This document shows, piece after piece, positions 7,820-44,701 of a DNA stretch of 45,032 bases. The notes under the pieces are model-generated. The model searched no databases, had not been told where the DNA came from, and saw only the letters and a program-made list of their open reading frames with translations. The position numbers were made by a program, and so were the translations under genes. The DNA lies in the NCBI GenBank assembly GCA_045644005.1, contig JAZRGF010000119.1, positions 1 to 45,032 on the forward strand, in the 5' to 3' direction. Each line of letters starts with the position of its first letter. The stretch's first letter is position 1. Source of the stretch: Bacteroidaceae bacterium. Lineage in GTDB: Bacteria; Bacteroidota; Bacteroidia; Bacteroidales; Bacteroidaceae.

Positions 7820-7917
7820 CTATTTGATAACATAAAATGTCAAATGTGCCTGTTGTGATTAGGGCATGGTGCATTACGGTAAAATTGAAGGCAAAACATT
7901 AAAATTCAATAAATATT

Positions 7918-8496
7918 ATGGGAAACGAAAACAAATATCTACGTGTGGCATACACCCTTTTGTCACACCGTAACGGTGAGTGTGAAGAGGTTGAAAAGAC
8001 AACCCGTGAGCAACCTTTTGCATTCTTGACAGGCGTTGGTTATACGCTCGATGCATTCGAGGAGAACCTCAAGGATTTGAAGAAAGGCGATGAGTTTGAC
8101 TTTACAATTCCATTTGCCGACGCTTATGGCGAGTATGACCCCGACCATGTCCAGGATTTTGACCGCGAGGTGTTTACCATTGACGGCAAGTTCGACTCTG
8201 CTCACATATACGAGGGCAATGTGGTTGAGATGATGCGCGCCGACGGTTCTCCAATCCTTGGTACAGTGAAGGAGGTGACTCCTTTGAAAGTGGTGATGGA
8301 TTTCAACCATCCGCTTGCGGGTTGCGACCTTCAGTTCATTGGTAATGTGGTTGAGGCTCGTCCTGCAAAGGAGCCGGAACTGAAGAAATTCTATGACTCG
8401 TTGAAGGCCTCTTGCAGTTGCGGAGGCGGTTGCAGCGGCTGCAATGGTGGTAGCTGTGGCGGCGACGGCGGTTGCGAGGGTGGTTGTTGTCATTAA
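7918..8496 (+). CDS. slyD: FKBP-type peptidyl-prolyl isomerase, SlyD-like, with a Cys/Gly-rich metal-binding tail
   Basis: 192 aa. SlyD-like FKBP and insert-in-flap core (GDEFDFTIPFADAYGEYD, MDFNHPLAG). C-terminal tail is CSCGGGCSGCNGGSCGGDGGCEGGCCH. Confidence 0.8.
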   Translation: MGNENKYLRVAYTLLSHRNGECEEVEKTTREQPFAFLTGVGYTLDAFEENLKDLKKGDEFDFTIPFADAYGEYDPDHVQDFDREVFTIDGKFDSAHIYEGNVVEMMRADGSPILGTVKEVTPLKVVMDFNHPLAGCDLQFIGNVVEARPAKEPELKKFYDSLKASCSCGGGCSGCNGGSCGGDGGCEGGCCH

Positions 8497-8508
8497 GAAA
8501 CAGGATCC

Positions 8509-9591
8509 ATGAATAGTATTGGCAATCTTTTGCGGCTTACCACGTTCGGTGAGTCGCATGGAGTGGCTATCGGCGGTGTGCTTGACGGCTATCCGGCGGG
8601 TGTGCTCATTGACGAGGAGTTTGTCCGTAGTGAGATGAAACGACGCCGCCCCGGGCAGAGCGCGATTACGACATCGCGTAACGAGGCCGACGAGGTGCAG
8701 TTCCTCTCCGGCATTTTCGAAGGGCGTTCAACAGGTGCGCCCATAGCCTTTACTATCATGAACAGCAATAACCGCAGTGCCGATTACGAAAATCTGCGCG
8801 AGGCTTTCCGTCCATCGCACGCCGATTATGTGTATGACTGCAAATACGGTGTGCGTGACCATCGCGGTGGCGGGCGCTCTTCGGCGCGTGAAACGGCTGT
8901 CAGGGTCTGTGCCGGCGCTTTGGCAAAATTGGCCTTGAAGCAATTGGGCATTGATGTGGTAGCTTACACTTCGCAGGTAGGCGAAATTGCTCTCAATGAT
9001 GGATATGCGGCATATGACCTGTCGCTTGTCGAGAGTAATGCAGTGCGCTGCCCCGATGCGGAGACTGCTGCAATAATGGAACGGCTGATACTTGATGTGA
9101 AACGCGAGGGTGATACAATCGGTGGAGTAGTGACATGTGTCGTGAAGGGTGTTCCTGTGGGCTTGGGCGAGCCGTTGTATTCCAAACTTTCGGCATCGTT
9201 GGCTTCGGCAATGATGTCAATAAATGCAGCCAAGGGATTCGACTATGGAAACGGTTTTGCTGCCGCAACGGGGCGAGGTTCATGGCAGAATGATATTTTC
9301 TACAACGATGGCGGCGCCATTGCAACCCGCACCAATAACAGCGGTGGCATACAGGGCGGAATCTCAAACGGTAATGACATCTATTTCAGGGTTGCTTTCA
9401 AGCCGGTGGCTACATTATTGATGGAGCAGCCTACCGTTACAAAGGGCGGCGAGGAGACGGTGTTGCTCGCACATGGCCGTCACGACCCTTGTGTCGTGCC
9501 GCGTGCCGTGCCTGTAGTAGAGGCTATGGCGGCTTTGGTTGTGCTCGACCACTATCTGCTCGACAGGGCTGCGCGTGGGTTGTTCAATTGA
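8509..9591 (+). CDS. aroC: chorismate synthase
   Basis: 360 aa. [40 protein letters not shown] and [18 protein letters not shown] are classic AroC motifs. Confidence 0.95.
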
Positions 9592-9618
9592 ATGGTATTG
9601 TGAAAAACAGATATTCAT

Positions 9619-12342
9619 ATGGAAAAAAAAGTGCATGAGAAGATGCATGCAAATGAAAAAGCAGCGCATAATGGTGCGCATGCCGGCAAAGGAGAAATGG
9701 GGAAGGGTGCCGGGCCTCTTGGCGCGGTGAGTGCGGTGCTCAATGGGCTACCTTCAATACTTACGGGAAACCTGTTTGCGGTGCTCTTCTTTGTGGCGGT
9801 ATGGGCGTTGCTCGTTTTCTGCGAGCCGGCGCTTCTGTTCCGTGTCAACGAGCTCTCGGTATTCTTGTATGACAATCTTTTCTATGAGGAGTTGATGTCG
9901 TTGCCGGCAGGTATACTCTATTATGTTGCCAGCTGGTTCGTGCAGTTCTTTTATATGCCGCTGTTGGGAGCTACGATATATGTGGGGCTTCTGGCCTTTG
10001 TCTATTGGCTTACATACAGGGTGTTCGATATTTCCCCAAGGCGCAGGCTGCTGGCGATGTTGCCTGTGGTAGCTCTCCTTGCAACGAATACCGAACTTGG
10101 ATATTGGATTTTCTATGTAAAGATTCCCGGTTATTATTATGTTGCGTTGTTAGGAGTGCTGTTCTCTCTTTTGGCGGCTTGGGTGGTGAAGATTGCCCAT
10201 TTCTCTCTGAAACCGTTCCTCATTGCCGCTTGGGTTGCATTTGCCTATCCTTGTTTGGGAGTCTATGCTATTGTATCGGGTGTAGTCATGGGCATTCACG
10301 CTCTTTGTAGTGCCATAGGTGGCAGGCAAGGCGTGCTTGGGGGTGTTGTCTCCTCGTTGACGCTGGCCGTGGCTGCCGCGGCAGCCTATCTTGTGCCTGC
10401 ATACTATTATGGACGCTACACAACTGTGCCTCTTGAGGAGATGCATATGGCGGCATTGCCTTCCTCGCAGTGGAAAAGCGAGCATGTGCCCGACAAAGAG
10501 TATAAGGAAGAGGTGATGTCCGTTATTGCCGATGTCAATGGCCGCGTGGGTTATCCTGTGGCCAAGGTACTGACAAAGTTCAGGATAAACATAGACGGCA
10601 GTTTCTCGCAGAAGGCGATAAAGAATGCCAAGGATGAGTTGTATGCAAGTGGCGACATTAACCGCCCTGTGAGTGGGAAGATCTATGCGCTTCTTTTTGT
10701 TGGCAAGGATGGACGTGAGTTCTACATAAATGAGGTGGGGGAAGGTGTTGCGCTCGTCGAAAGGGTGAACGGAGTGCCTGTTCCCAAGTCAGGGCATTTT
10801 GAGTGTGTTCAGGATAAAAAGCTCAAAGATGTAGTGATGTTCAAGACTTCGGGTGGCAGATATCTTGTATGGCGTAAACAGCAGCTCGAGGGTGAAGAAA
10901 GATTTTCTGTCGGGTTGTCATCGTCGCCCGATGGGCACAATGCATATTGTACAGTCCTGAAGATGAAAAAGGAGGGTGCTGTGCAGGTGTCCGACGAGTC
11001 TGAACTGTTCGGGCTGGTGAATATGATGGTGTTTGATGGCAAGATACAGCCCGATGGCCGTTATGAACAGCTGTGCGTGCCAACCCTGGCCGGCGGGGAG
11101 ATTATAGGTCTTTCGGCTGCTGTGTTTGACGATGCACGTACATCGGCATTGCGTATTGAGGAGGTCGGGTTCAAGCCATTGCCCTTCTCGCTTGAAATCC
11201 AGGAACGGTCAAGGTGGTATGACGTCGAGGCCAACTGGCTGCCGTTCTGGCTGTTGCTGTTGTCGTTTGTGCTTCTTGCAATCATGTCGCTTGTACCGCA
11301 AAATTGTCAGTGCTGCAAGGCCGGTGCTTGGCACGGTATCCTGTGGCTGTTTGCTGCAATATTGCTTGCGGGTCTATGCCGTTTGTTCTGGTACGACAAC
11401 GATAATTTCAGAATAGAGAACAAACAGAACTGGGCGATGTGGAACGAGGAGTGGGAGACGGTTGTCTCTTTGGCTCAAGATGCGGTGATACCGACCCGCC
11501 AGATTGTCATGAACAAGAATGTTGCTCTGTTGAAACTAGGGCGCTCAGGCGCAGAAATGTTCTCTTACCCCGAGGGTAGTGCCGATATTGAAGCTTCGAT
11601 ACCGGTGCGCTTGGCGCAGACTGGCGGCAAGATGGCCTATTATCAATATGGCAAGTTTAATTTCTGCTACCGTTGGTGTGTTGAGGATGCTGTGGAGTAT
11701 GGTTGGAGAATCGAGTATCTGAAGCACGCGGTGCGTTCAATGCTCTTGGCAGGTGAACATCGTCTTGCCGAGAGGTATATCAATATTTTGAAACAGACTT
11801 TGTTCTATTCTGATTGGGCCTGTGAAATGGAGACATATATTAATGACCCAGAGTCTTTACTCCGCAACAGGGAATTCTTTATGCCTTTGAATATGACTTG
11901 TTACAATGATTTCCTGGATGTGGACGAGTCATACGTGGAGGCATACCTGACAAAGAATCTGACGAATGCGACAGGTAAGATGTCGCGCGTCTATGTCGAG
12001 GCAGCATTGGCGTCTGCCCTCACACGCAAGGATGCAAAGTCATTCTGGTTCTTCCTGAACTATTATGTCAATGAACTCAAGGCAAGTTCTTTGCCAAGGT
12101 ACTATCAGGAGGCAGTTGTGCTTTTCATGAATGTGGACAAAGGCCGTACCGTCCAGGTGCCAAAGGCCTTCCTTGACAACTTTATATCTGTGGGTACGAA
12201 TACCAGGATGACAAGGTTCATGCAACTTGTCTCAAGGCATAAGGGGATGAGCGAAGAGGAGATGGCACCGTTTTTCAAAGATGAGTTCGGCGACTCTTAT
12301 TTCTACTTCTATTTCTTTGTGCGTAATATAAAAACCAATTGA
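9619..12342 (+). CDS. polytopic inner-membrane protein, DUF6057-like, with a large soluble insertion and a C-terminal soluble domain
   Basis: 907 aa. About 8 hydrophobic helices lie between residues 40 and 280, including LPAGILYYVASWFVQFFYMPLLGATIY, which I recall as DUF6057-like. A soluble stretch of about 250 aa follows, then 2 more helices (WLPFWLLLLSFVLLAIMSLV, ILWLFAAILLAGLCRLFW) and a tail of about 300 aa. Confidence 0.55.
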   Translation: MEKKVHEKMHANEKAAHNGAHAGKGEMGKGAGPLGAVSAVLNGLPSILTGNLFAVLFFVAVWALLVFCEPALLFRVNELSVFLYDNLFYEELMSLPAGILYYVASWFVQFFYMPLLGATIYVGLLAFVYWLTYRVFDISPRRRLLAMLPVVALLATNTELGYWIFYVKIPGYYYVALLGVLFSLLAAWVVKIAHFSLKPFLIAAWVAFAYPCLGVYAIVSGVVMGIHALCSAIGGRQGVLGGVVSSLTLAVAAAAAYLVPAYYYGRYTTVPLEEMHMAALPSSQWKSEHVPDKEYKEEVMSVIADVNGRVGYPVAKVLTKFRINIDGSFSQKAIKNAKDELYASGDINRPVSGKIYALLFVGKDGREFYINEVGEGVALVERVNGVPVPKSGHFECVQDKKLKDVVMFKTSGGRYLVWRKQQLEGEERFSVGLSSSPDGHNAYCTVLKMKKEGAVQVSDESELFGLVNMMVFDGKIQPDGRYEQLCVPTLAGGEIIGLSAAVFDDARTSALRIEEVGFKPLPFSLEIQERSRWYDVEANWLPFWLLLLSFVLLAIMSLVPQNCQCCKAGAWHGILWLFAAILLAGLCRLFWYDNDNFRIENKQNWAMWNEEWETVVSLAQDAVIPTRQIVMNKNVALLKLGRSGAEMFSYPEGSADIEASIPVRLAQTGGKMAYYQYGKFNFCYRWCVEDAVEYGWRIEYLKHAVRSMLLAGEHRLAERYINILKQTLFYSDWACEMETYINDPESLLRNREFFMPLNMTCYNDFLDVDESYVEAYLTKNLTNATGKMSRVYVEAALASALTRKDAKSFWFFLNYYVNELKASSLPRYYQEAVVLFMNVDKGRTVQVPKAFLDNFISVGTNTRMTRFMQLVSRHKGMSEEEMAPFFKDEFGDSYFYFYFFVRNIKTN

Positions 12343-27400: not shown

Positions 27401-27749
27401 GACAACAGCAATGCTCAACCGCTGGACTGTGGACGGACAGGTAACCGACATTCCTTCAGTCGCTTATGGCGACCCTGTAGGCAACTCGCGTTTCTCTGAC
27501 CGTTGGATAGAGGATGGTTCATATCTGCGTCTCAAGAGCGTAAGGTTGTCATATGAGATTCCTGTTACAGCCAACTGGCTTCAGGGACTTACTGTTTGGG
27601 GTGCTGCAGAAAACCTCTACACCCTGACCAAGTATAAGGGTAGCGATCCCGAGTTCTCGGTAAGCAATAATGTCCTTTATCAGGGTGTCGATGCCGGCTT
27701 GTTGCCACAGTCACGCAGTTTCCACGTTGGTGTTAAGGTAAATCTCTAA
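24444..27749 (+). CDS. SusC/RagA-family TonB-dependent outer-membrane transporter (pair 2)
   Basis: 1101 aa. Carboxypeptidase-regulatory-like domain (VTGTVYDAATNQPMAGVRVQATG...AEGKYKL). Plug motif GAAIYGARAANGVIIINTKRG. The C-terminal barrel ends FHVGVKVNL. Confidence 0.95.
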   Translation: MKKRKSTMYMRQLLQLTVALIFLMPSAALASETVSEGTVADNPVKVEKNSPAADVRTVTGTVYDAATNQPMAGVRVQATGHKRITTMTNAEGKYKLNIPSHVTLLTFSTTDYLLVQKPVGKRDIINVRLHSDDFQENYSDDIVVTAERGFDEDITTAITIESDIQNQLGADVRTVNRSGTMGMGAAMFIRGINSLNANAQPLVVVDGVIWDLQEGNEAIHMGAYNNVLSAIDVNDIRSVKVLKNGAAIYGARAANGVIIINTKRGESMATRITANLFANVTLEPETPRMLSGEEYRLYANDIIGTMNVNPNRDIEFLRSDKPVYTNGKLTSGFLYYDKYHNNTDWNEVVYREAVSQNYKINVEGGDDVAMYNFSFGYTLGNSPIKGNDFNRLNVRLNSDIVLTDDLKTRIDISYARVGRELLDDGMREDATSFPLTSLGALATVKSPFLSPYRYSSLGEISAIIDVADDFAYGVSKAAGIANPNNSLYNPLSILDKASDPHKNELEYTNMGITVAPEYKLGDFTISETFNYSLYRVSEKYYLPYPAAADNKQYYFYVNSLNGSIGNYIASYFGKEAALSSDTRVAWAKVFGAHSVDAFGGFRYTNFNLDSNAISGANSGSDIQFNTAKEHIESDGEKNVWSNMAWYLSADYAYRTRYFLQLAASLETSSRFGGRADNALRMLGVAWGFFPSVQAAWFVSSEPWFNVKGINALKLRAGFDVTGNDAIDYLAARSYLQSVKFSDKYMGLQLGNVENDGVKWESTARFNVGVDAMFLENRLALSFDWYRSKTRDLLVQKQYQFVTGMGTYWANGGELQNMGVEATLNAKLVNDRNFQWELGASLGHYKNKVTALDEALAPVSVYGAEVATMVGQPVGVFWGYKTDGVIASSADAAEYGLYQRDATGAKQYFKAGDMKFVDVNPGSAPGCIDENDKTVIGNPNPDIYGNIFTRLAYKGLSLDVNFNYSVGNDVYNYYRQQLESGSSFYNQTTAMLNRWTVDGQVTDIPSVAYGDPVGNSRFSDRWIEDGSYLRLKSVRLSYEIPVTANWLQGLTVWGAAENLYTLTKYKGSDPEFSVSNNVLYQGVDAGLLPQSRSFHVGVKVNL

Positions 27750-27805
27750 TGAATGACAAACCTTTGTTAATGAATATTTATCAAGGTGCGAAAAAAGATA
27801 AAACA

Positions 27806-29869
27806 ATGAAAAAGAAACTTATTTATACAATAGCATTCCTACTTGGCGGAACCTTTATGTTCAGTTCCTGCGATGATATGTTGAATGTTGACTCAAACCG
27901 TGTGGAGTATGAGTTCGATGACTGGACACTCAATGACTCTGTATTCTCGGTTCTTGGTATTCTTAAAGGTGTGCAGAATGTTGCTGACCGTCAGGTTCTC
28001 ATCAATGAGCTGCGTGCCGACCTTGTGACTGTCAATGAGTCAAAGGCCGTTGTTGATGTACAGGAGTTGAGCCGTTCGGAGTTCAACCTTGGCAGCAACA
28101 AGTATCTTGACGTAAAGGATTATTATGCAATCATCAACAACTGTAACATATATCTTGCACGTGTAGATACTACACTTGAGAAGAACGGTGTGAGACTGAT
28201 GCTCCCCGAGTATGTTGCCGTAAAGAGTGTACGTGCATGGACATATCTCCAGCTTGCAATCAACTACAACAATGTACCTTACTTCACTGAGCCAATCCTT
28301 ACTCACAGTGCTGCCGAGGAGGTTATGAACACCCCAATGCTCACACGTAATGATATTCTGAACAGGCTCATTGAAGATATCCTCCCATATGAGAACCCTA
28401 CTACATATCCAATGCCTGCATGGGATACCGATGGTAAGGTGCTCAAGTTCGGTAGTGACACAGATGGTACCGATGTAGAGACAAAACAGCTTTTTGTGCC
28501 AATACGCATGTTGTTGGGTGAGCTCTATCTTTGGAAGGGTGACTACAAGAAAGCCGCACAGTATTTCTACTCTCAGATTGTAGGTGCCGGTACATCAAAG
28601 AAGTATACCGATGCAGGCTTCCAGGCTGCATATAGTAAAGAGAATGGCGAGGGATACAACAACAACTTCATCAAGATGTTTGCCTCAAAGAGCTATGGCG
28701 AGACCAGCACAAACTTCTTCACAATCATCCCATTCTCAAATACAGACCTTGGTGGAACAACATCATCCGCTCTTGCATCTGTCTTCTCTCCACAGTCGCA
28801 GGTAGGTGCTGCGCAGGTTGAAGCCTCTGCCGGTTTACGCTCTTTGGCGGGTCGTCAGGTCTATTCATATATTGAGGAAGCCGACAAAAAGAACAAGGCT
28901 GTCTCTCCCCAGTATAGCCATAAATACAAGTATAAGGGCGATCTCCGCATCAAGGCTACAACCTATTCACAGCATGGTACCGGTGATGACAAGAACGAGT
29001 ACAAGAATATCATTGCCAAGTTCAACTACGATGAGGGTTCGTGGAATATTGATGGTGCCTTCACACCGCGTGTAAAGACAACATTCCTCATTCTTCAGCG
29101 TAAAGAACATGCATACTTGCGTCTTGCCGAGGCGTTGGTAGGTTTGGCGCGTGGTGACAATGAGACACGATATGAAGGTGCAATGGAACTTGCCATGAAC
29201 ATCCTCAAGGTAGGTCCAAAGGCAAATTACCGTCTCTTGAAGAACCCTGTGTATGCCGACAGTGTACTGCTCAATTCAAAGGGTGATACAATATTTGAGT
29301 ACACATACGAGGCTGGCGTGAAGAAAGACAGCGTGGCAAGAAAGGATAGATATGTTGCCTCTTTCACAGATGAAATTGTATACGATTTTACTGACGACCT
29401 GTTCCAGAGCAACATAGGTATTCACTCACGTGGTTCGGGCTTCAGCGAGCGCAACGCATACTATGCGTTGAACGATACATGTATCGCACGCTATTTGGGC
29501 CGTACAGTGGTTGAAGATGATGTTGAGAAAATCTTGGGCGATATCAGCTACCAGGATTCACTCAATTACATTGCTGACCTCGTTATCGATGAGCTTGCTC
29601 TTGAGTTTGCTTGGGAGGGTACACGTTTTGGAGACCTCATCCGCTTTGCCGAGGCTGCAAAGAAAGATGGAGATCCCAAGTATTATGATATTCTTGCCAA
29701 GCGCGTTGCCGGTCGTGCATTGGAGAACAGTGTGACATACCGTAGCGAAGGCTTCCAGAAGGATGCCAAGCTCTATGATGATATGTCAAATGAGGAAAAT
29801 TGGTACTTGCCGTTGCCTGCTGGCGTTGTTGACCCGGTAAATCCCGCGGATGTAGCCAAAGGTAAATGA
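27806..29869 (+). CDS. SusD/RagB-family outer-membrane lipoprotein (pair 2, long form)
   Basis: Start at MKKKLIYTIAFLLGGTFMFSSC (lipobox). SusD-like features: VRAWTYLQLAINYNNVPYF, ELALEFAWEGTRFGDLIRF. About 687 aa. Confidence 0.85.
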   Translation: MKKKLIYTIAFLLGGTFMFSSCDDMLNVDSNRVEYEFDDWTLNDSVFSVLGILKGVQNVADRQVLINELRADLVTVNESKAVVDVQELSRSEFNLGSNKYLDVKDYYAIINNCNIYLARVDTTLEKNGVRLMLPEYVAVKSVRAWTYLQLAINYNNVPYFTEPILTHSAAEEVMNTPMLTRNDILNRLIEDILPYENPTTYPMPAWDTDGKVLKFGSDTDGTDVETKQLFVPIRMLLGELYLWKGDYKKAAQYFYSQIVGAGTSKKYTDAGFQAAYSKENGEGYNNNFIKMFASKSYGETSTNFFTIIPFSNTDLGGTTSSALASVFSPQSQVGAAQVEASAGLRSLAGRQVYSYIEEADKKNKAVSPQYSHKYKYKGDLRIKATTYSQHGTGDDKNEYKNIIAKFNYDEGSWNIDGAFTPRVKTTFLILQRKEHAYLRLAEALVGLARGDNETRYEGAMELAMNILKVGPKANYRLLKNPVYADSVLLNSKGDTIFEYTYEAGVKKDSVARKDRYVASFTDEIVYDFTDDLFQSNIGIHSRGSGFSERNAYYALNDTCIARYLGRTVVEDDVEKILGDISYQDSLNYIADLVIDELALEFAWEGTRFGDLIRFAEAAKKDGDPKYYDILAKRVAGRALENSVTYRSEGFQKDAKLYDDMSNEENWYLPLPAGVVDPVNPADVAKGK

Positions 29870-29925: not shown

Positions 29926-29939
29926 AAACGTATATTGTC

Positions 29940-30641
29940 ATGAAAAAGATTGTAATCCTGTCTGGTGCCGGAATGAGTGTAGAGAGCGGCCTTGGCACCT
30001 TCCGTGGTGGCGGTGGCCTGTGGGACGAGTACCCTGTTGAAAAGGTAGCAACTCCCGAGGGATATGCCTCCAACCCACAACTCGTCCTTGACTTCTATAA
30101 CAAACGCCGCCGTGAGCTGCTTACCGTGCAGCCCAATGAGGGCCACAGGCTTGTGGCATCCCTTGAAGAACGCTTCAATGTTACCGTTGTTACACAGAAC
30201 GTCGACAACCTTCACGAGCGTGCCGGCTCAACCAATGTCATCCACCTGCATGGCGAACTCATGAAGGCCTGTTCCTCGCGCCAACCGCAGAATCTTGACT
30301 ATGTTTGCATCCTGCCGTCACCCGATAGCGACCTGCACCTTGGCGACCTCGCAGCCGATGGCTCACAGCTGCGCCCTTTCATCGTGTGGTTCGGTGAGGC
30401 TGTACCACGCATGGAAGATGCTGTAGCTGCACTCGGAGATATCGATGCTTTTGTCATCATTGGCACTTCGCTCAATGTCTATCCTGCTGCAGGGTTGCTC
30501 AATTACGTGCCATACGGCGTTCCTGTCTATCTCATTGACCCCAATGATGTGCATGTTACAAGGCGTGATGTTATAGACAACAGGAAAGGAGCACCAGAGG
30601 GAATGCGTACACTAATTGAAGAACATCTTGATAAAATATGA
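29940..30641 (+). CDS. Sir2-family NAD-dependent protein deacylase
   Basis: Start at MKKIVILSGAGMSVESGLGTFRG. The track's longer ORF would run through the terminator. QNVDNLHERAG and the catalytic HLHGEL are present. The canonical CxxC...CxxC zinc tetrad is absent. Confidence 0.9.
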   Translation: MKKIVILSGAGMSVESGLGTFRGGGGLWDEYPVEKVATPEGYASNPQLVLDFYNKRRRELLTVQPNEGHRLVASLEERFNVTVVTQNVDNLHERAGSTNVIHLHGELMKACSSRQPQNLDYVCILPSPDSDLHLGDLAADGSQLRPFIVWFGEAVPRMEDAVAALGDIDAFVIIGTSLNVYPAAGLLNYVPYGVPVYLIDPNDVHVTRRDVIDNRKGAPEGMRTLIEEHLDKI

Positions 30642-30800: not shown

Positions 30801-30962
30801 ATGAAAAAGTATATCTGTACAGTATGTCAGTGGGTCTATGACCCCGAGATTGGCGATCCCGAGCAGGGAATTGAGCCTGGTGTAGCATTCGAGAATCTCC
30901 CCGACGACTATGTCTGCCCACTCTGCGGCGTAGGAAAGGATGAGTTAGAGGTAGAGGAGTAA
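30801..30962 (+). CDS. rubredoxin
   Basis: 53 aa: [20 protein letters not shown]...[13 protein letters not shown]. Two CxxC pairs with the classic spacing. Confidence 0.95.
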
Positions 30963-31030
30963 TACGAATTCTAACTGAAACACGCCTATTAATTGAGTAT
31001 ACGCTTCCATGCGTTGACATTGCAATAATG

Positions 31031-31070
31031 ACAAGAATAGGGTTCCGGTGCACCGGAACCCTATTCTTGT
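31031..31070 (+). terminator. perfect 20+20-nt palindrome, a likely terminator; left bracket of the cassette
   Basis: ACAAGAATAGGGTTCCGGTG / CACCGGAACCCTATTCTTGT. Confidence 0.6.
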
Positions 31071-31141
31071 TACTACTCCCCTGATTCCTTTACCAGGTTA
31101 CTTCTTACTAGTCACTCCTGTCTCCCTTCTTTTCTTGAGCT

Positions 31142-31195
31142 TACAAGGCTTGTAAAGAGTCTACAAGGCTTGTAAACTCATTGATGCAACATCAA
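31142..31195. promoter_or_regulatory. operator-like palindromes: 2x TACAAG-G-CTTGTA spaced 20 bp, plus TTGATG-CAA-CATCAA
   Basis: TACAAGGCTTGTAAA occurs at 31142-31156 and again at 31162-31176. TTGATGCAACATCAA is at 31181-31195. All lie just upstream of the -7 box. Confidence 0.4.
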
Positions 31196-31202
31196 TCATA
31201 CA

Positions 31203-31210
31203 TAACTTTG
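31203..31210 (+). promoter_or_regulatory. Bacteroidota -7 promoter box of the cassette
   Basis: TAACTTTG 32 nt upstream of the ATG at 31242. Confidence 0.45.
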
Positions 31211-31241
31211 CACCATAAGTTGAACATTAAATAATAAAGTT

Positions 31242-31682
31242 ATGGGAAAATTATCAGACATTGTTAGAAATCCGGGTGTAGTAAGTCAGTATGTTCGTGG
31301 TATGGTCAGTGCAAAACGTGACACGAAGAATTGCTATAATCTTACCTTTGTAAAAGAAGCAAATGGCGGATGGTACATCGATTTGCCTAATTGGAAAGGT
31401 TCACATGCGAATCTTGCGATGGTGGCAGGTTCCGATTTGTTGCTCGACCATCTCCACAGAGAAAACAACAAAGTAGAAGTTGAGGTTGTTAAATCGGACA
31501 TTCCGTTGGATGATATGGACGGATATTTTGTGTGTGAGCAGCTTGAGATGTCAATGTTCGGGGGAGCGACATATAATGTATGTGGATTAGAGGGTTTTGA
31601 CAGGCCAATTTGGATTTGCCCTGTAACACTCTTCGTGCTTGGGGAATATCCTAAATATATATATATTTGTCAAACGAAATAA
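31242..31682 (+). CDS. hypothetical 146-aa protein, a conserved-looking small family of unknown function
   Basis: Clean ORF in the AT-rich cassette. Motifs GGWYIDLPNWKGSHANLAMVAGSDLLLD and PIWICPVTLFVLGEYPKYIYI. No signal peptide, TM helix or catalytic motif that I recognise. Confidence 0.6.
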   Translation: MGKLSDIVRNPGVVSQYVRGMVSAKRDTKNCYNLTFVKEANGGWYIDLPNWKGSHANLAMVAGSDLLLDHLHRENNKVEVEVVKSDIPLDDMDGYFVCEQLEMSMFGGATYNVCGLEGFDRPIWICPVTLFVLGEYPKYIYICQTK

Positions 31683-31692
31683 AACTGCAACT

Positions 31693-32697
31693 ATGATTTT
31701 GAATTATGGAATTCCAATTGGAGTAAGCAAGTTGCCATACCAACCTGCTATAGACGAGATATTGTATGTTGAAGGGAATCACACCATTAAAATAGAAAGG
31801 TGGAAGGTTGAGTATTACAAAGAGCTAATCAATAATTCATTAAGAAGTCCTGAACAATATGCGGAGGGCTATTTCTCTCTTATCATCGATATGTTGAATA
31901 ACCCATCTTTATGGACCGGTTTTACTACAGAGCAGCAACAGGCAATGAGAACAGAAATGATTGATAGCTTTGATTTTGCCACTTGTTCACTTTCTCGAAA
32001 AAAGTTTCTTCCTTCTTTATTCGTATATCATTCAAAGGTAGGGAATTGCAAATACAGGTTCCAACAATTTGTTATTGGCAATAATGGGTTGCTGCAGACT
32101 TTGGACGATGTTATTGCTTATATGGATTTTAGAGATAAGTCTTATGGAATAGATTTTGAGTCGCAATCAAAATTCCCGAGCGAAAGAGATGGCATTGTTG
32201 AGCAAATGCAGAATTGTGCCCGGAAATTGCTTGAAATAGGAATGGATAGAAATGAAATTATCGAAAACTTATTCAATAGCAAGCCAATGCAAAAGATGAA
32301 AGTTCTAAAAAATGGTGATATCTTATTGCAGGGAACAGAATATGGAGAAGCGAATATAAATCTACCGCCATTGGATAAGGCCATCTATTTATTGTTTCTT
32401 CGCCATCCCGAGGGTATCAATTTCAGCTATCTGCCCGATTATAGGGAGGAGCTTATGGAGATATACAGGAAACTGATGAAATATCGCACAACAGATTCTA
32501 TGTTGAAGAGTGTCGAGGATGTCACAGATCCGACAAAGAACTCCATCAATGAAAAATGCGCGCGCATCCGTCGTGCTTTTGTCGATGCCTTGGGACGTTA
32601 TCTGGCCTTCTCATATTACATTACAGGAAACAGAGGTGAGGCTAAGAAGATTGTTCTGGACAGACGTTATGTCAGTTGGGAAACAGAAGATGAATAA
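31693..32697 (+). CDS. hypothetical 334-aa protein with an HTH-like C-terminal module
   Basis: ATG at 31693, 10 nt after the previous stop. The C-terminal segment LPPLDKAIYLLFLRHPEGINFSYLPDYREELMEIYRKL...NSINEKCARIRRAF has the feel of a LuxR/sigma-region-4-type helix-turn-helix. The N-terminal 230 aa have no motif I recognise. Confidence 0.6.
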   Translation: MILNYGIPIGVSKLPYQPAIDEILYVEGNHTIKIERWKVEYYKELINNSLRSPEQYAEGYFSLIIDMLNNPSLWTGFTTEQQQAMRTEMIDSFDFATCSLSRKKFLPSLFVYHSKVGNCKYRFQQFVIGNNGLLQTLDDVIAYMDFRDKSYGIDFESQSKFPSERDGIVEQMQNCARKLLEIGMDRNEIIENLFNSKPMQKMKVLKNGDILLQGTEYGEANINLPPLDKAIYLLFLRHPEGINFSYLPDYREELMEIYRKLMKYRTTDSMLKSVEDVTDPTKNSINEKCARIRRAFVDALGRYLAFSYYITGNRGEAKKIVLDRRYVSWETEDE

Positions 32698-32700
32698 TAT

Positions 32701-32740
32701 AACATTAAAGAGAGTTCCGGCCGGAACTCTCTTTAATGTT
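32701..32740. terminator. perfect 20+20-nt palindrome, a bidirectional terminator; right bracket of the cassette
   Basis: AACATTAAAGAGAGTTCCGG / CCGGAACTCTCTTTAATGTT. Lies between convergent genes and overlaps the ygiQ stop codon by 2 nt. Confidence 0.6.
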
Positions 32741-34595
32741 ATATCCCTAATTTCTTTACCAGGTCATTCCTGCCCATCCTGCGCAGCAGTTGTGCTATCT
32801 GCTTGCGCTCCTCGGGCTTGTACCAGAAGAAGAACCTCCTCTGCGCCTCCTTGTCCTTCATTGAGCGTGCAACGTACACATTCTCTCCCGTTTCGGGGTT
32901 TATGCCGGTGTAGTACATTTCAGTGGCCATTGTCATTGGCGTGGGGGTGAAGTCCTGCACCTGCTCCAGGTGGAAATTCAGCTGTCTGGTCTCTGCTGCA
33001 AGCTCGGCCATCGCCTCAACCGTGCTGCCGGGGTGGCTGCTGATGAAGTAGGGGATTATCTGCTGCTTGAGGTTATACCTGCTGTTGATGCGGTCGAATA
33101 TGCGTTTGAAGTCATGGAACTGCTTGAACGACGGCTTGCGCATTAGCTTTAGCACTGCGTCGTTAGTGTGCTCGGGAGCCACCTTCAAACGGCCGCTGAC
33201 GTGATTACGTATCAGTCCCTCGGTGTATCTGTCTGTCCCCTCGTCGCGCTGTTTGTCGCCCGTTCTATGGAGCAGCATGTCATATCTCACGCCACTGCCA
33301 ATGAAGCTCTTCTTTATGCAGGGCAGTGCATCGACCTTCTTGTACAGCTCGAGCAGTGCGCTATGGTCGATATTCATGTTGGGGCAAATTTTCGGCTGTA
33401 TACACGACGGGCGTGAGCACTTGGCGCACAGGTCGCTGTTCTTGCCCTTCATCATGTACATGTTGGCCGATGGGCCTCCAAGGTCACTGAGGTAGCCCTT
33501 GAAATCGTCCATCGCAGCAATCTCCTTTATCTCGCGCAGAATGCTCTCCTGGCTGCGGTTTACAATGAACTTGCCCTGGTGGGCCGATATGGTGCAGAAG
33601 GCACAGCCTCCGAAACAGCCACGGTGTATGTTCACCGAGTGCTTTATCATGTCATATGCCGGTATGCGCTTGCCGTTGTACTTGGGGTGGGGCAGGCGTG
33701 TGTAAGGCAGGTCAAAGCTGTGGTCGAGCTGCTCGGTTGTCATTGTGGGGAACGGCGGGTTAATTACCACCACACCCTCGTCATACTCCTGCATCAGTCT
33801 CTTTGCACTCACCTTGTTCGACTCCTTCTCAATCGCAAGGAAGTTCGCGGCCTGCTTTGCCTTCTCCTTCAGACACACTGCATGGGGCGCAAGAAGCTTG
33901 TCCTGTGACTCGTCAATGGTAATGTCGCTCTTGCGTGCAAGGTATCCGGTCTGGCGTATCTCCTTGGTTATCTCGCGTGCCACATCGGCTGTCATGTGCC
34001 CGGCACCGCTCTCCTGCAGCTTTGCCTGCATAGCCTTGCACAGCGCGGTCATGGGCTGTTCGCCCATGCCATATACAAGCACGTCGGCCTTGCTGTCGAC
34101 AAGAATGCTCTTCATCAGGCGGTCCTGCCAATAGTCGTAGTGCGTGAAGCGGCGCATTGATGCCTCAATGCCGCCAATGACAACAGGGGCGTCGGGGTAG
34201 AGTTTCTTGAGTATGTTCGAATATACCGTTGTCGCATATTCGGGGCGCATGCTGTGCTTGCCGTTGGGCGAGTAGGCGTCCTCGCTGCGGAATCGTTTGG
34301 CTGCGGTGTATTTGTTGACCATTGAGTCCATGCAACCGGCCGATATTCCAAAGAACAGGCGGGGACGTCCCATCTTCTTGAAGTCGCGCAGGTCGTCCTG
34401 CCAGTTTGGCTGCGGAACAATGGCCACGCGCAACCCTTCAGCCTCCAGCAGACGGCAGATGACAGCCGCGCCGAACGATGGGTGGTCGACATACGCATCA
34501 CCGCTGAACATTACAACGTCCAGCTCATCCCATCCGCGCAGTTCGGCCTCCTTGCGGGTGGTGGGCAGCCAATCGGTAATCTTTCTGTTACTCAT
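32739..34595 (-). CDS. ygiQ: YgiQ-family (UPF0313) radical SAM protein
   Basis: Start at MSNRKITDWLPTTRKEAELRGWDELDVVMFSGDAYVDHPSFG, a typical YgiQ N-terminus. Radical-SAM cluster motif is CFGGCAFC. Confidence 0.9.
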   Translation of the reverse strand: MSNRKITDWLPTTRKEAELRGWDELDVVMFSGDAYVDHPSFGAAVICRLLEAEGLRVAIVPQPNWQDDLRDFKKMGRPRLFFGISAGCMDSMVNKYTAAKRFRSEDAYSPNGKHSMRPEYATTVYSNILKKLYPDAPVVIGGIEASMRRFTHYDYWQDRLMKSILVDSKADVLVYGMGEQPMTALCKAMQAKLQESGAGHMTADVAREITKEIRQTGYLARKSDITIDESQDKLLAPHAVCLKEKAKQAANFLAIEKESNKVSAKRLMQEYDEGVVVINPPFPTMTTEQLDHSFDLPYTRLPHPKYNGKRIPAYDMIKHSVNIHRGCFGGCAFCTISAHQGKFIVNRSQESILREIKEIAAMDDFKGYLSDLGGPSANMYMMKGKNSDLCAKCSRPSCIQPKICPNMNIDHSALLELYKKVDALPCIKKSFIGSGVRYDMLLHRTGDKQRDEGTDRYTEGLIRNHVSGRLKVAPEHTNDAVLKLMRKPSFKQFHDFKRIFDRINSRYNLKQQIIPYFISSHPGSTVEAMAELAAETRQLNFHLEQVQDFTPTPMTMATEMYYTGINPETGENVYVARSMKDKEAQRRFFFWYKPEERKQIAQLLRRMGRNDLVKKLGI

Positions 34596-34902
34596 TTGTC
34601 TCTGTTGCTTCCTCTGCTGCTGCCATCCACTCGGTGTAGTGCTTGATGAGGTTCTTGAGTCCAAGAGCCTTCATGTCCTCGTGGTAAAGGATTGGACAGA
34701 TGTCGAGCAGCTCCTTCGATGCCATTGTTTGTGATGCAATGAGCGAGCGCACTGTGAGGCGCAGTTTGTTAAGTGATTCCTCGTCAATGACACCTGTGCT
34801 GTTGGCAATTCTGTCGAGCAGTGAATATTTTTTGATTATCTGCAGTTGTTCTTCGGTTACCTCTATGGTTCTTGTACCCGATGCGTTTGCGTTGATTTTC
34901 AT
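34588..34902 (-). CDS. hypothetical small acidic protein (104 aa), translationally coupled to ygiQ
   Basis: Start chosen at MKINANASG (ATG at 34902). The longer track ORF would translate the intergenic repeat copies. Its stop overlaps the ygiQ ATG by 8 nt (ATGAGTAA). Confidence 0.45.
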   Translation of the reverse strand: MKINANASGTRTIEVTEEQLQIIKKYSLLDRIANSTGVIDEESLNKLRLTVRSLIASQTMASKELLDICPILYHEDMKALGLKNLIKHYTEWMAAAEEATETNE

Positions 34903-44642: not shown

Positions 44643-44646
44643 TATA

Positions 44647-44681
44647 CGACAATAGGCAGCCCGACGGGCTGCCTATTGTCG
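44647..44681. terminator. bidirectional hairpin terminator
   Basis: Perfect 16-bp stem CGACAATAGGCAGCCC-GAC-GGGCTGCCTATTGTCG between convergent genes. Confidence 0.7.
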
Positions 44682-44701
44682 TAATATGTGGTATCGTTCT
44701 T

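Follow-up and report, generated by a model that had tools for sequence, protein, structure and literature searches.

A recombinase-less two-gene islet at the 3′ end of ygiQ in Bacteroidaceae, bracketed by terminator hairpins and a decayed gene-end copy: a probable CIME-like insertion

We analyzed a 45,032-nt stretch of DNA (the window) from Bacteroidaceae bacterium GCA_045644005.1 (contig JAZRGF010000119.1, positions 1-45,032, forward strand) together with 80 related Bacteroidaceae ygiQ loci, fetched from 345 candidate loci. A compact two-gene cassette lies between the rubredoxin gene and ygiQ, with the following features:

30801..30962, + strand: rubredoxin gene (Pfam PF00301, E = 3e-22), the conserved left neighbour
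31026..31075 (perfect core 31031-31070), no strand: left hairpin, the resident bidirectional rubredoxin/ygiQ terminator, now parted from ygiQ
31071..31136, - strand (sense): relic, a decayed and non-coding copy of the ygiQ 3′ end, best kept at 31079-31105
31137..31176, + strand: two operator-like tandem units of 20 nt
31203..31210, + strand: promoter -7 box TAACTTTG, a consensus match read directly from the sequence
31242..31682, + strand: DUF6717 gene, 146 aa (PF20475, E = 4e-27)
31693..32697, + strand: ORF2, 334 aa, with a novel N-terminal domain and a predicted C-terminal OmpR/PhoB-like winged-helix domain
32697..32744, no strand: right hairpin (hairpin B), a perfect 24+24 palindrome and cassette-borne terminator
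32739..34664, - strand: intact ygiQ (radical SAM; TIGR03904, E = 4e-234; PF08497)
32739-32825, - strand: final ~85 nt of ygiQ, which an alignment of 3′ ends identifies as the relic's intact counterpart

The cassette interior is compositionally distinct from ygiQ, with a GC content of 38.6% versus 55.1% and a GC3 of 0.38-0.40 versus 0.72, in agreement with the AT-rich interior described in the initial annotation. The Bacteroidetes -7 promoter consensus is TAnnTTTG; TAACTTTG fits it, lies 32 nt ahead of the DUF6717 start codon and is kept as ATAACTTTGCA in all cassette homologues, bearing out the earlier proposal that the cassette has its own promoter box. Each unit at 31137-31176 holds the palindrome (T)TACAAGGCTTGTAA(A), the two units being 90% identical, and a single GCAAGCCTTGTAAAG is conserved upstream of DUF6717 genes at ygiQ-unrelated loci (L082, L083, L160, L163-168, L193). 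The operator-like palindromes noticed earlier are the cassette's own conserved cis-element, not a derivative of ygiQ.

Both cassette genes are under purifying selection, with dN/dS values of 0.13-0.28 for DUF6717 and 0.13-0.16 for ORF2. The AlphaFold2 model of DUF6717 (pLDDT 78) returned no match in a structural search. ORF2, which is always paired with DUF6717, has 1176 unnamed homologues and no match in Pfam, NCBIfam or PADLOC; the top Foldseek matches of its model (pLDDT 90) are the DNA-binding domains of AdeR and OmpR (probability 0.99 and 0.77; TM-score on target 0.60 and 0.50; E-values weak). This OmpR/PhoB-like winged helix suggests that ORF2 is probably a DNA-binding regulator, which probably binds the TACAAGGCTTGTA repeats. 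We take the cargo to be functional and self-regulated, and DUF6717 and the new winged-helix protein form a widespread, co-inherited gene pair.

The two perfect 40-nt palindromes reported initially are both present. The left one (31031-31070, 20+20) extends to 25+25 at 92% complementarity (31026-31075), and the right one (32701-32740) is longer than first described, remaining perfect to 24+24 (32697-32744). Folded as RNA, the two hairpins reach -31 to -38 kcal/mol (the left one -34 to -38 kcal/mol); relative to shuffled sequences, their z-scores are -8 to -10.7. The 45-kb window holds only three palindromes of this class, and an Rfam search gave no match. Hairpin B overlaps two stop codons, that of ORF2 and that of ygiQ.

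The motif beside the left hairpin genuinely derives from the ygiQ 3′ end, as a decayed copy of its last ~65 bases. Positions 31079-31105 and 32745-32771 match without gaps at 22/27, and the exact 11-mer CTTTACCAGGT occurs in both copies, at 31088 and 32754, as the initial annotation had stated; its assignment of the right copy to the last ygiQ codons (...RRMGRNDLVKKLGI-stop) is likewise correct. Its argument from the rarity of the 11-mer carries little weight alone, since at least two hits occur in 11/100 shuffles when one mismatch is allowed. The decisive evidence is an empirical null in which the ygiQ 27-mer of the window was compared with 2.1 million positions on both strands of the window and the 80 related loci. 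True ygiQ ends aside, only position 31079 of the window and the homologous relic of L021 reach at least 20/27; both score 22, whereas the background maximum is 19. Per-locus gapped searches gave E = 0.009 for the window relic and E = 2e-9 for that of L021, which is better preserved: it agrees with the ygiQ end of L021 at 40/51 positions, and a gapped alignment extends to ygiQ sequence ...CGCTCCTCGGGCTT. The window relic continues with indels to about 31136; the weaker continuation first read between 31111-31126 and 32764-32779 is out of register.

Comparison of related loci revealed empty sites, in which a single hairpin separates rubredoxin from the ygiQ stop. About 45/80 related genomes have this arrangement, with rubredoxin ~50-250 bp from the ygiQ stop, and those read base by base (e.g., L002, L004, L005, L006, L010, L016 and L077) carry one hairpin and no cassette. 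None of the empty sites read keeps both palindrome-motif copies, and the hairpin-plus-motif is specific to the ygiQ locus: in 1.83 Mb of fetched DNA, each of the 19 occurrences of the core GGTYYCGG..CCGRRACC lies either at the ygiQ terminator or next to a relic. The left hairpin of the window is homologous to the single, resident hairpin that L006 and L002 have at their empty sites. Wherever a hairpin abuts the relic, it is the one found in relatives that share the neighbour but lack the cassette (L001/L169, L064/L081). Hairpin B, by comparison, travels with the cassette: it also lies 3′ of the cassette, differing by 1-2 changes in the loop, in L081, L182 and L183, and in L169 as a compensated variant, so the cassette does bring its own terminator, as had been proposed.

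The cassette adjoins the ygiQ stop in three left-hand contexts: rubredoxin (the window), an 819-aa gene (L081, L182 and L183, with a deleted version in L021) and hpf (L169-L178, L190, L191, L194 and L195). Nucleotide identity between the window and L021 is 92-93.5% in the cassette region, 81.5-82.7% in ygiQ and 69% across sir2-rubredoxin. Against L081 the cassette genes are 97.5% identical and ygiQ 91.3%, and the high-identity tract ends at the ygiQ stop or at most about 100 nt into ygiQ; against L169 the values are 82.9% and 90.9%. This incongruence with host genes indicates that the cassette moves horizontally between genomes. The same-species pair L169 (filled) and L001 (empty) has flanks 96.8-98.5% identical and differs by a 1630-nt insert, with the last ~30 nt of ygiQ matched on both sides. 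The intact L169 ygiQ 3′ end equals that of its empty conspecific L001, apparently the lineage's own sequence.

The relic travels with the cassette as well. The window and L021 relics have the common derived bases CCTGATTCC, where the genuine ygiQ end has CCTAATTTC, and the join of relic to cassette is conserved between L021 and L081, all this despite differing host backgrounds. Most of the relic is absent from L081, whose cassette is 97.5% identical to that of the window, and the relic is therefore dispensable. Its signals are nevertheless mixed: the window has CCTGATTCC in common with L021 but a 9-nt junction deletion with L169, and the L169 relic resembles the genuine 3′ ends of sister lineages (CCAAATCATTCC..ATCCGTCG in L003; TAACCTC in L008).

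The same scar of hairpin plus ygiQ relic surrounds other cargo in related gut bacteria: an AAA_14/DUF4143 ATPase in L011 (E = 2e-8), a kinase island in L064 (E = 1.6e-7) and a different cargo in L067 (E = 1e-4). Altogether, relics arose independently beside at least four unrelated cargos, that of L011 being closest to its own ygiQ end. Hairpin plus relic also recurs between units in L064, L081 and L011, with no conserved core and no attC-like asymmetry found. L064 and L081 suggest arrays of up to three units, the newest possibly being the one that adjoins ygiQ. By these comparisons, the ygiQ end is a recurrent gene-insertion hotspot where such units accumulate.

No dedicated mobility gene was found at the locus. 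As the initial annotation stated, no integrase or transposase is present: the cassette holds only DUF6717 and ORF2, neither with a recombinase domain. The 45-kb window contains no integrase, transposase or recombinase domain, and phmmer with an Xer-like query found nothing there; representative cargo proteins scanned likewise lack a recombinase. None of the 80 related ygiQ loci (of 345 candidates) showed an integrase-bearing insert, a parental ICE or IME at the site, or an integrase that targets ygiQ. The only tyrosine recombinase seen is a XerC/D-like gene adjoining hpf in L001/L003/L169, part of a conserved core gene block. Viral contigs scanned with a ygiQ-end 20-mer gave chance hits only, and neither a circular form nor a hairpin-B-to-relic junction was observed.

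With moderate confidence, we favour the interpretation that the cassette is a recombinase-less, att-flanked islet, similar to streptococcal CIMEs, that entered by Campbell-type insertion at the junction of the ygiQ stop and the terminator hairpin. The inserted unit would begin with the ygiQ 3′ relic and end with hairpin B, with the promoter, the operator, the DUF6717 gene and the gene of the winged-helix regulator in between. If its ends were joined in a circle, hairpin B followed by the relic would mimic the chromosomal target, in which a terminator hairpin precedes the ygiQ 3′ end. Recombination of mimic with target would then leave intact ygiQ abutting the cassette hairpin on the near side, with the relic and the resident hairpin together on the far side. 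The circular intermediate and the recombination agent are both inferred, and for the agent several possibilities arise. A tyrosine-type recombinase acting in trans is a tentative candidate; relic and intact copy have no constant exact core across events, and their longest shared blocks lie at different offsets, a poor fit to a fixed crossover site. Host homologous or short-homology recombination is possible but somewhat less likely; with an identity to the intact copy of no more than 73-89%, the relics are a poor RecA substrate. Another agent altogether takes up the remaining probability.

Other explanations of the duplicated gene end were weighed against this one. The initial annotation had read the locus as an integration footprint in which the element supplied the intact 3′ end and displaced the original. 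Its insertion scar at the ygiQ 3′ end stands, given the empty sites and the locus-specific motif. Its more specific form, that integration took place within ygiQ, ~65-85 nt short of the stop, and that the element, by analogy with e14 and phage 21 at icd, brought a surrogate 3′ end and terminator, leaving the left copy as the displaced native end, we consider unlikely. It predicts exactly the topology seen, with the resident hairpin on the left, and the resemblance of the L169 relic to the L003 and L008 ends means that this relic could be an older native end and the present L169/L001 end an import. The relic, however, came with the cassette, as the derived substitutions of the window and L021 and the L021/L081 junction show in differing hosts. 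Moreover, the high-identity tract between the window and L081 does not run farther into ygiQ, and the intact L169 end is that of cassette-less L001.

Equally to be considered is an origin with no dedicated mobility, in which one illegitimate event or tandem duplication made the relic, and homologous recombination in the flanking core genes accounts for spread and loss. The lack of a recombinase in the window and scanned cargos fits this account, as does the mosaicism of ygiQ between lineages (79-100% identity per 100 nt). The 819-aa cargo, 98.3-98.5% identical between L064 and L081 where ygiQ is 89.7% identical, and a relic-to-cassette junction that apparently formed once, point the same way. 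We nevertheless regard it as improbable: high-identity tracts stop at unit ends (hairpin or relic), not inside flanking core genes; the same cassette stands beside three different left neighbours, so that no left homology arm is shared; and the unrelated cargos derived their relics independently. Far less credible still is a chance likeness of ordinary terminators, or a dispersed REP- or MITE-like repeat present twice. The weak significance of the 11-mer count would be compatible with coincidence, but 22/27 exceeds the null maximum, all hairpin cores are tied to the ygiQ terminator or a relic, the empty sites read hold one copy, and Rfam has no match. A REP/MITE-type dispersed repeat is effectively refuted, the window having two motif copies and the hairpin core being confined to the ygiQ locus.

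The CIME-like interpretation offers a base-by-base view of how small accessory operons may enter, and move between, uncultured gut Bacteroidaceae without a mobility gene of their own. Its signature, a spare terminator plus a decayed gene-end copy, is searchable and could find "silent" islets at other conserved genes. Should a recombinase acting in trans drive the insertions, the ygiQ stop would offer a natural landing pad of use in engineering these organisms. A bolder proposal, to which we give little credence, is that terminator hairpin plus ygiQ 3′ mimic form a genuine attC/attI-like recombination site, recognised by a recombinase encoded elsewhere in the genome. If so, the ygiQ stop would serve as a platform dedicated to gene capture, on which cassettes with their own promoters are stacked in Bacteroidaceae of the ruminant gut. 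Such an integron-like system, with its recombinase unlinked, would be of a kind not described so far.

Integration hotspots between conserved core genes are a general concept of comparative genomics, and the interval from rubredoxin or hpf to ygiQ resembles them in its variable accessory content across species. Units at the ygiQ site differ in having a defined scar (terminator plus gene-end copy) and sharp boundaries, which points to a specific insertion geometry over simple flank-mediated exchange. Integration at a gene 3′ end with duplication of that end is known from e14 and phage 21 at icd in E. coli and from tRNA- and tmRNA-targeting islands. There, as here, a truncated second copy brackets the insert and the gene stays intact. 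Those elements encode their own integrase and supply the functional 3′ end; the ygiQ islet has no integrase, and its decayed ygiQ copy appears to travel with the cargo.

The low-GC, largely co-oriented cargo arrays, the conserved intergenic motif (here palindrome plus ygiQ relic) and the capture of new genes at one fixed site recall integrons and the rAID systems of Bacteroidales. Integrons and rAID systems alike are defined by an adjacent tyrosine recombinase (for rAID, PMC12247911), which was not found in the 45-kb window or the scanned cargos. Furthermore, the ygiQ-site hairpins are perfect, terminator-shaped palindromes whereas attC sites are imperfect, and the cassette carries a regulator pair where rAID cargo consists of immunity genes.

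Streptococcal CIMEs are the closest parallel. These elements of 1.2-13 kb are flanked by direct repeats from the 3′ end of a conserved gene, carry cargo without integrase, relaxase or conjugation genes, and accrete in tandem at the 3′ ends of fda, rpsI, rpmG and tRNA-Lys, with the most decayed units farthest from the target (PMC7563491). The ygiQ islet likewise has att-type repeats from the target 3′ end, imperfect at 22/27, lacks integrase, relaxase, coupling-protein and T4SS genes, and is one of a set of small cargo-bearing elements that appear to form tandem arrays beside the target gene. CIMEs as a class are deletion derivatives of an ICE or IME at the same site and are mobilised in cis once an incoming ICE or IME has accreted; no such integrase-bearing relative was seen among the 80 ygiQ loci or in the representative cargo proteins scanned. 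The repeats at ygiQ also include the whole terminator hairpin and are long (30-85 nt), decayed and without a constant core, and the host is an uncultured Bacteroidaceae. Collectively, the ygiQ islet appears to resemble known CIME-type elements, from which its ygiQ target and whole-hairpin repeats set it apart.

The cassette between rubredoxin and ygiQ comprises a DUF6717 gene and a second gene, ORF2, with a promoter of its own, and a decayed, non-coding copy of the ygiQ 3′ end (hereafter the relic) lies beside its left hairpin. GC content is 38.6% in the cassette interior versus 55.1% in ygiQ, and GC3 is 0.38-0.40 versus 0.72. The region is organized as follows.

27749-29869, + strand: susD-like gene
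29937-30641, + strand: sir2
30801-30962, + strand: rubredoxin
31026-31075: left hairpin (perfect over 31031-31070)
31071-31136, − sense: relic motif region
31137-31176, + strand: two tandem 20-nt units with TACAAGGCTTGTAAA
31203-31210, + strand: TAACTTTG box
31242-31682, + strand: DUF6717 gene
31693-32697, + strand: ORF2
32697-32744: right hairpin (hairpin B), perfect 24+24
32739-34664, − strand: ygiQ

The left and right hairpins have stabilities of −31 to −38 kcal/mol (z-scores −8 to −10.7), and an Rfam search of the region returned no match. Three palindromes of this class occur in the 45-kb window, these two included; the third long perfect one (19+19 nt, 1-nt loop) lies at 44645-44683.

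The duplication of a palindrome plus ygiQ-end motif, claimed in the initial annotation, was confirmed. Positions 31079-31105 match 32745-32771, the 27-mer of last ygiQ codons after the right hairpin, at 22/27 positions, including an exact 11-mer. Because the 11-mer count is weak evidence alone (at least two matches in 11% of shuffles, one mismatch allowed), we performed an empirical scan with the ygiQ 27-mer over 2.1 million positions, covering both strands of the window and 80 related loci. True ygiQ ends aside, just two sites reached at least 20/27, the relic in the window and its homologue in the related locus L021, each scoring 22 against a background maximum of 19. The L021 relic further agrees with the ygiQ end of its own locus at 40/51 positions (background maximum 30), and per-locus gapped searches (blastn-short) yielded E = 2e-9 for the L021 relic and E = 0.009 for that of the window. 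An nhmmer profile built from the terminal 72 nt of ygiQ found the relic of locus L011, missed that of the window and gave the L021 relic E = 22; being too insensitive for short decayed copies, it was replaced by the ungapped scans and per-locus blastn-short. The operator repeats (31134-31176), suggested as part of the relic by 71% identity to 32802-32822 in a repeat search, were excluded from it, since DUF6717 genes at ygiQ-unrelated loci are also preceded by this conserved element. A 35-nt stretch of similarity on the left side of the L021 relic, considered as an extended duplication, is the 5′ end of an 819-aa cargo gene of the type found in locus L064. Weak ygiQ-3′-like matches (best E = 1e-5) occur at L019 1709-1752 and at the same place in L013, L014, L020, L021 and L034, constantly ~6.2 kb upstream of the ygiQ stop.

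The 80 related loci, drawn from 345 ygiQ hits, come from uncultured Bacteroidaceae, mostly of ruminant guts. The ygiQ and rubredoxin stops lie just 50-250 bp apart in about 45 of the 80, and the empty sites inspected base by base carry one hairpin, abutting the ygiQ stop, as the initial annotation had predicted for relatives without the cassette. The left hairpin of the window is a clear homologue of the hairpins at the closest empty sites, L006 (ACAAGAAATAGGGTCTCGG..CCGAAACCCTATTTCTTGT, then TATATCCC) and the similar L002. Hairpins with the core GGTYYCGG..CCGRRACC number 19 in 1.83 Mb of fetched DNA, and all 19 lie either at the terminator of ygiQ or next to one of its relics, indicating a locus-specific unit. 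These results run against both counter-readings raised at the outset, namely that cassette-less relatives carry both copies and that the motif is a generic dispersed repeat. The spacer between rubredoxin and hairpin at empty sites L002, L004, L005, L006 and L077 is filled with GAAA-rich short repeats (e.g., AAATCTGAAATCTGAAATCTGAAAGGTTAAAG).

Sequence comparison indicates that the cassette forms a discrete, horizontally moving unit. Identities to the window come from per-segment blastn of L021, L169 and L081, with an additional region-wide blastn of L021. In L021, the cassette is 92.3% identical over 31080-32684 (two genes, 93.5%) versus 81.5-82.7% for ygiQ and 69% for sir2-rubredoxin. The corresponding values for cassette genes and ygiQ are 82.9% and 90.9% in L169, and 97.5% and 91.3% in L081, where the high-identity tract stops around the ygiQ stop. 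The cassette abuts this stop in three left-hand contexts: rubredoxin (window), the 819-aa gene (L081, L182 and L183, with L021 a deleted version) and hpf (L169-L178, L190, L191, L194 and L195). The hairpin abutting the relic, where present, is the one found in relatives that lack the cassette but share the left neighbour (L001 with L169; L064 with L081), and hairpin B lies 3′ of ORF2 in the window, L081, L182 and L183, with a compensated variant in L169. The conspecific loci L169 and L001 have flanks 96.8-98.5% identical and differ by a 1630-nt insert that has matches to the final ~30 nt of ygiQ on either side.

Several further arrangements were observed around this site. L001 and L003, considered as large insertions, hold no island but show broken synteny of the core genome (hpf, xerC, mdh, kdtA, gltX); in L001, L003, L169-L178, L191 and L194 the break falls exactly at the ygiQ 3′ end, and gltX-kdtA-mdh-rpsU-xerC-hpf replaces susD-sir2-rubredoxin downstream of ygiQ. 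L021 contains an extra ~2 kb between ygiQ and ORF2 (7893-9950) with three small ORFs (102, 109 and 123 aa) lacking Pfam matches, and hairpin B is absent there. Within ygiQ itself, identity between the window (32739-34664) and L081 (3964-5945) ranges from 79 to 100% per 100 nt, a mosaicism that suggests frequent recombination inside the gene. In the 919-nt metagenome contig L193 (positions 1-440), the cassette promoter is of the L169 type, has one operator copy, lacks a ygiQ relic and immediately follows the 3′ end of a further gene of the DUF6717 family; the cassette lineage is thus also present away from ygiQ, and L193 could represent a donor locus.

The relic itself appears to travel with the cassette. 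The relics of the window and of L021 both carry CCTGATTCC in place of the CCTAATTTC of genuine ends; a junction of CGCTCCTGGAGCTT with ACAAGG is common to L021 and L081, where genuine ygiQ has CGCTCCTCGGGCTT followed by GTACCAG; and a 9-nt shorter junction is common to the window and L169. Most of the relic is missing in L081 despite 97.5% cassette identity to the window, and it is therefore dispensable and decaying. The L169 relic resembles genuine ygiQ ends of other lineages (L003, L008), and the intact L169 end equals that of L001. Given these mixed signals, we designate neither copy as original, and the earlier proposal that the element supplied a surrogate, intact ygiQ 3′ end is not supported.

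The ygiQ end is a general hotspot, with other cargos bearing the same ygiQ-type hairpin plus relic at their far side: an AAA_14/DUF4143 ATPase in L011 (relic E = 2e-8), a Ser/Thr kinase, an Lcl_C lipoprotein and an 819-aa protein in L064 (E = 1.6e-7), and 0.75 kb with no ORF of at least 90 aa in L067 (E = 1e-4). L064 reads rubredoxin, hairpin, relic, three-or-four-gene block, hairpin, 819-aa gene, hairpin, ygiQ, and in L081 the DUF6717 cassette is added between the L064-type last hairpin and ygiQ. Together, the two loci suggest accretion of up to three units, the newest probably adjoining ygiQ. Their 819-aa cargos are 98.3-98.5% identical versus 89.7% for their ygiQ genes.

DUF6717 and ORF2 are always adjacent, also at ygiQ-unrelated loci, where they head longer operons, and motif GCAAGCCTTGTAAAG with box ATAACTTTGCA is kept upstream at all of these loci; the box fits the Bacteroides −7 consensus, TAnnTTTG. 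The DUF6717 product matches PF20475 (E = 4e-27), and its structure model has no Foldseek match in the PDB. ORF2 has 1176 unnamed homologues and no match in PADLOC, NCBIfam or Pfam. Its confident model (pLDDT 90) best resembles OmpR/PhoB-type winged-helix DNA-binding domains (AdeR, probability 0.99; OmpR, 0.77; E-values weak), which fit its C-terminal part. For the two genes, dN/dS is 0.13-0.28 in the two more diverged comparisons (with L169 and L021). We infer a self-regulated two-gene module. Exact-protein look-up of the window rubredoxin and ORF2 found no identical entry on record, and our literature search found no paper mentioning DUF6717. At metagenome loci L107, L108, L110 and L122, tandem genes carry 2-4 occurrences of the ORF2-family C-terminal, winged-helix-like domain. 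In L166-L168, ~45 nt that look like a tRNA T-arm plus 3′ half precede the DUF6717 start by ~200-260 nt; neither ARAGORN nor Rfam recognizes a tRNA fragment there.

In order, the site consists of the resident hairpin, the relic-cargo-hairpin B unit and the intact ygiQ end. The joined ends of a circular unit (hairpin B, then relic) would mimic the chromosomal site (hairpin, then ygiQ end), and a single reciprocal exchange between the two would generate this arrangement. A trans-acting site-specific recombinase is one candidate agent, favoured by a boundary that stays at the hairpin/stop-codon junction across the three contexts, and by the poor identity of the relics. Against it, no recombinase was detected in the cassette by Pfam, NCBIfam or PADLOC, in the whole window by phmmer with an Xer-like query, or in the representative cargo proteins scanned at other loci, and no constant core is common to relic and intact copy across events. 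Host homologous or short-homology recombination is a possible agent as well. The xerC beside hpf belongs to a conserved core block. Reading the hairpin ends as integron or IS91 sites was rejected: compared by eye with the GTTRRRY and CTTG/GTTC motifs, they are inconsistent across loci. A viral-contig scan with a ygiQ-end 20-mer gave chance matches only.

Collectively, the initial interpretation proved largely right: an insertion scar at the ygiQ end, marked by hairpin and relic and matched by empty sites, left by an islet that encodes no detectable recombinase. Our literature search found no paper linking ygiQ to an integration site. The arrangement differs from rAID and integron arrays, whose definition includes a recombinase next to the array (PMC12247911). 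Among described systems, it most closely resembles the streptococcal CIME, where units accrete in tandem at gene 3′ ends and decay is most advanced in those most distant from the target gene (PMC7563491).
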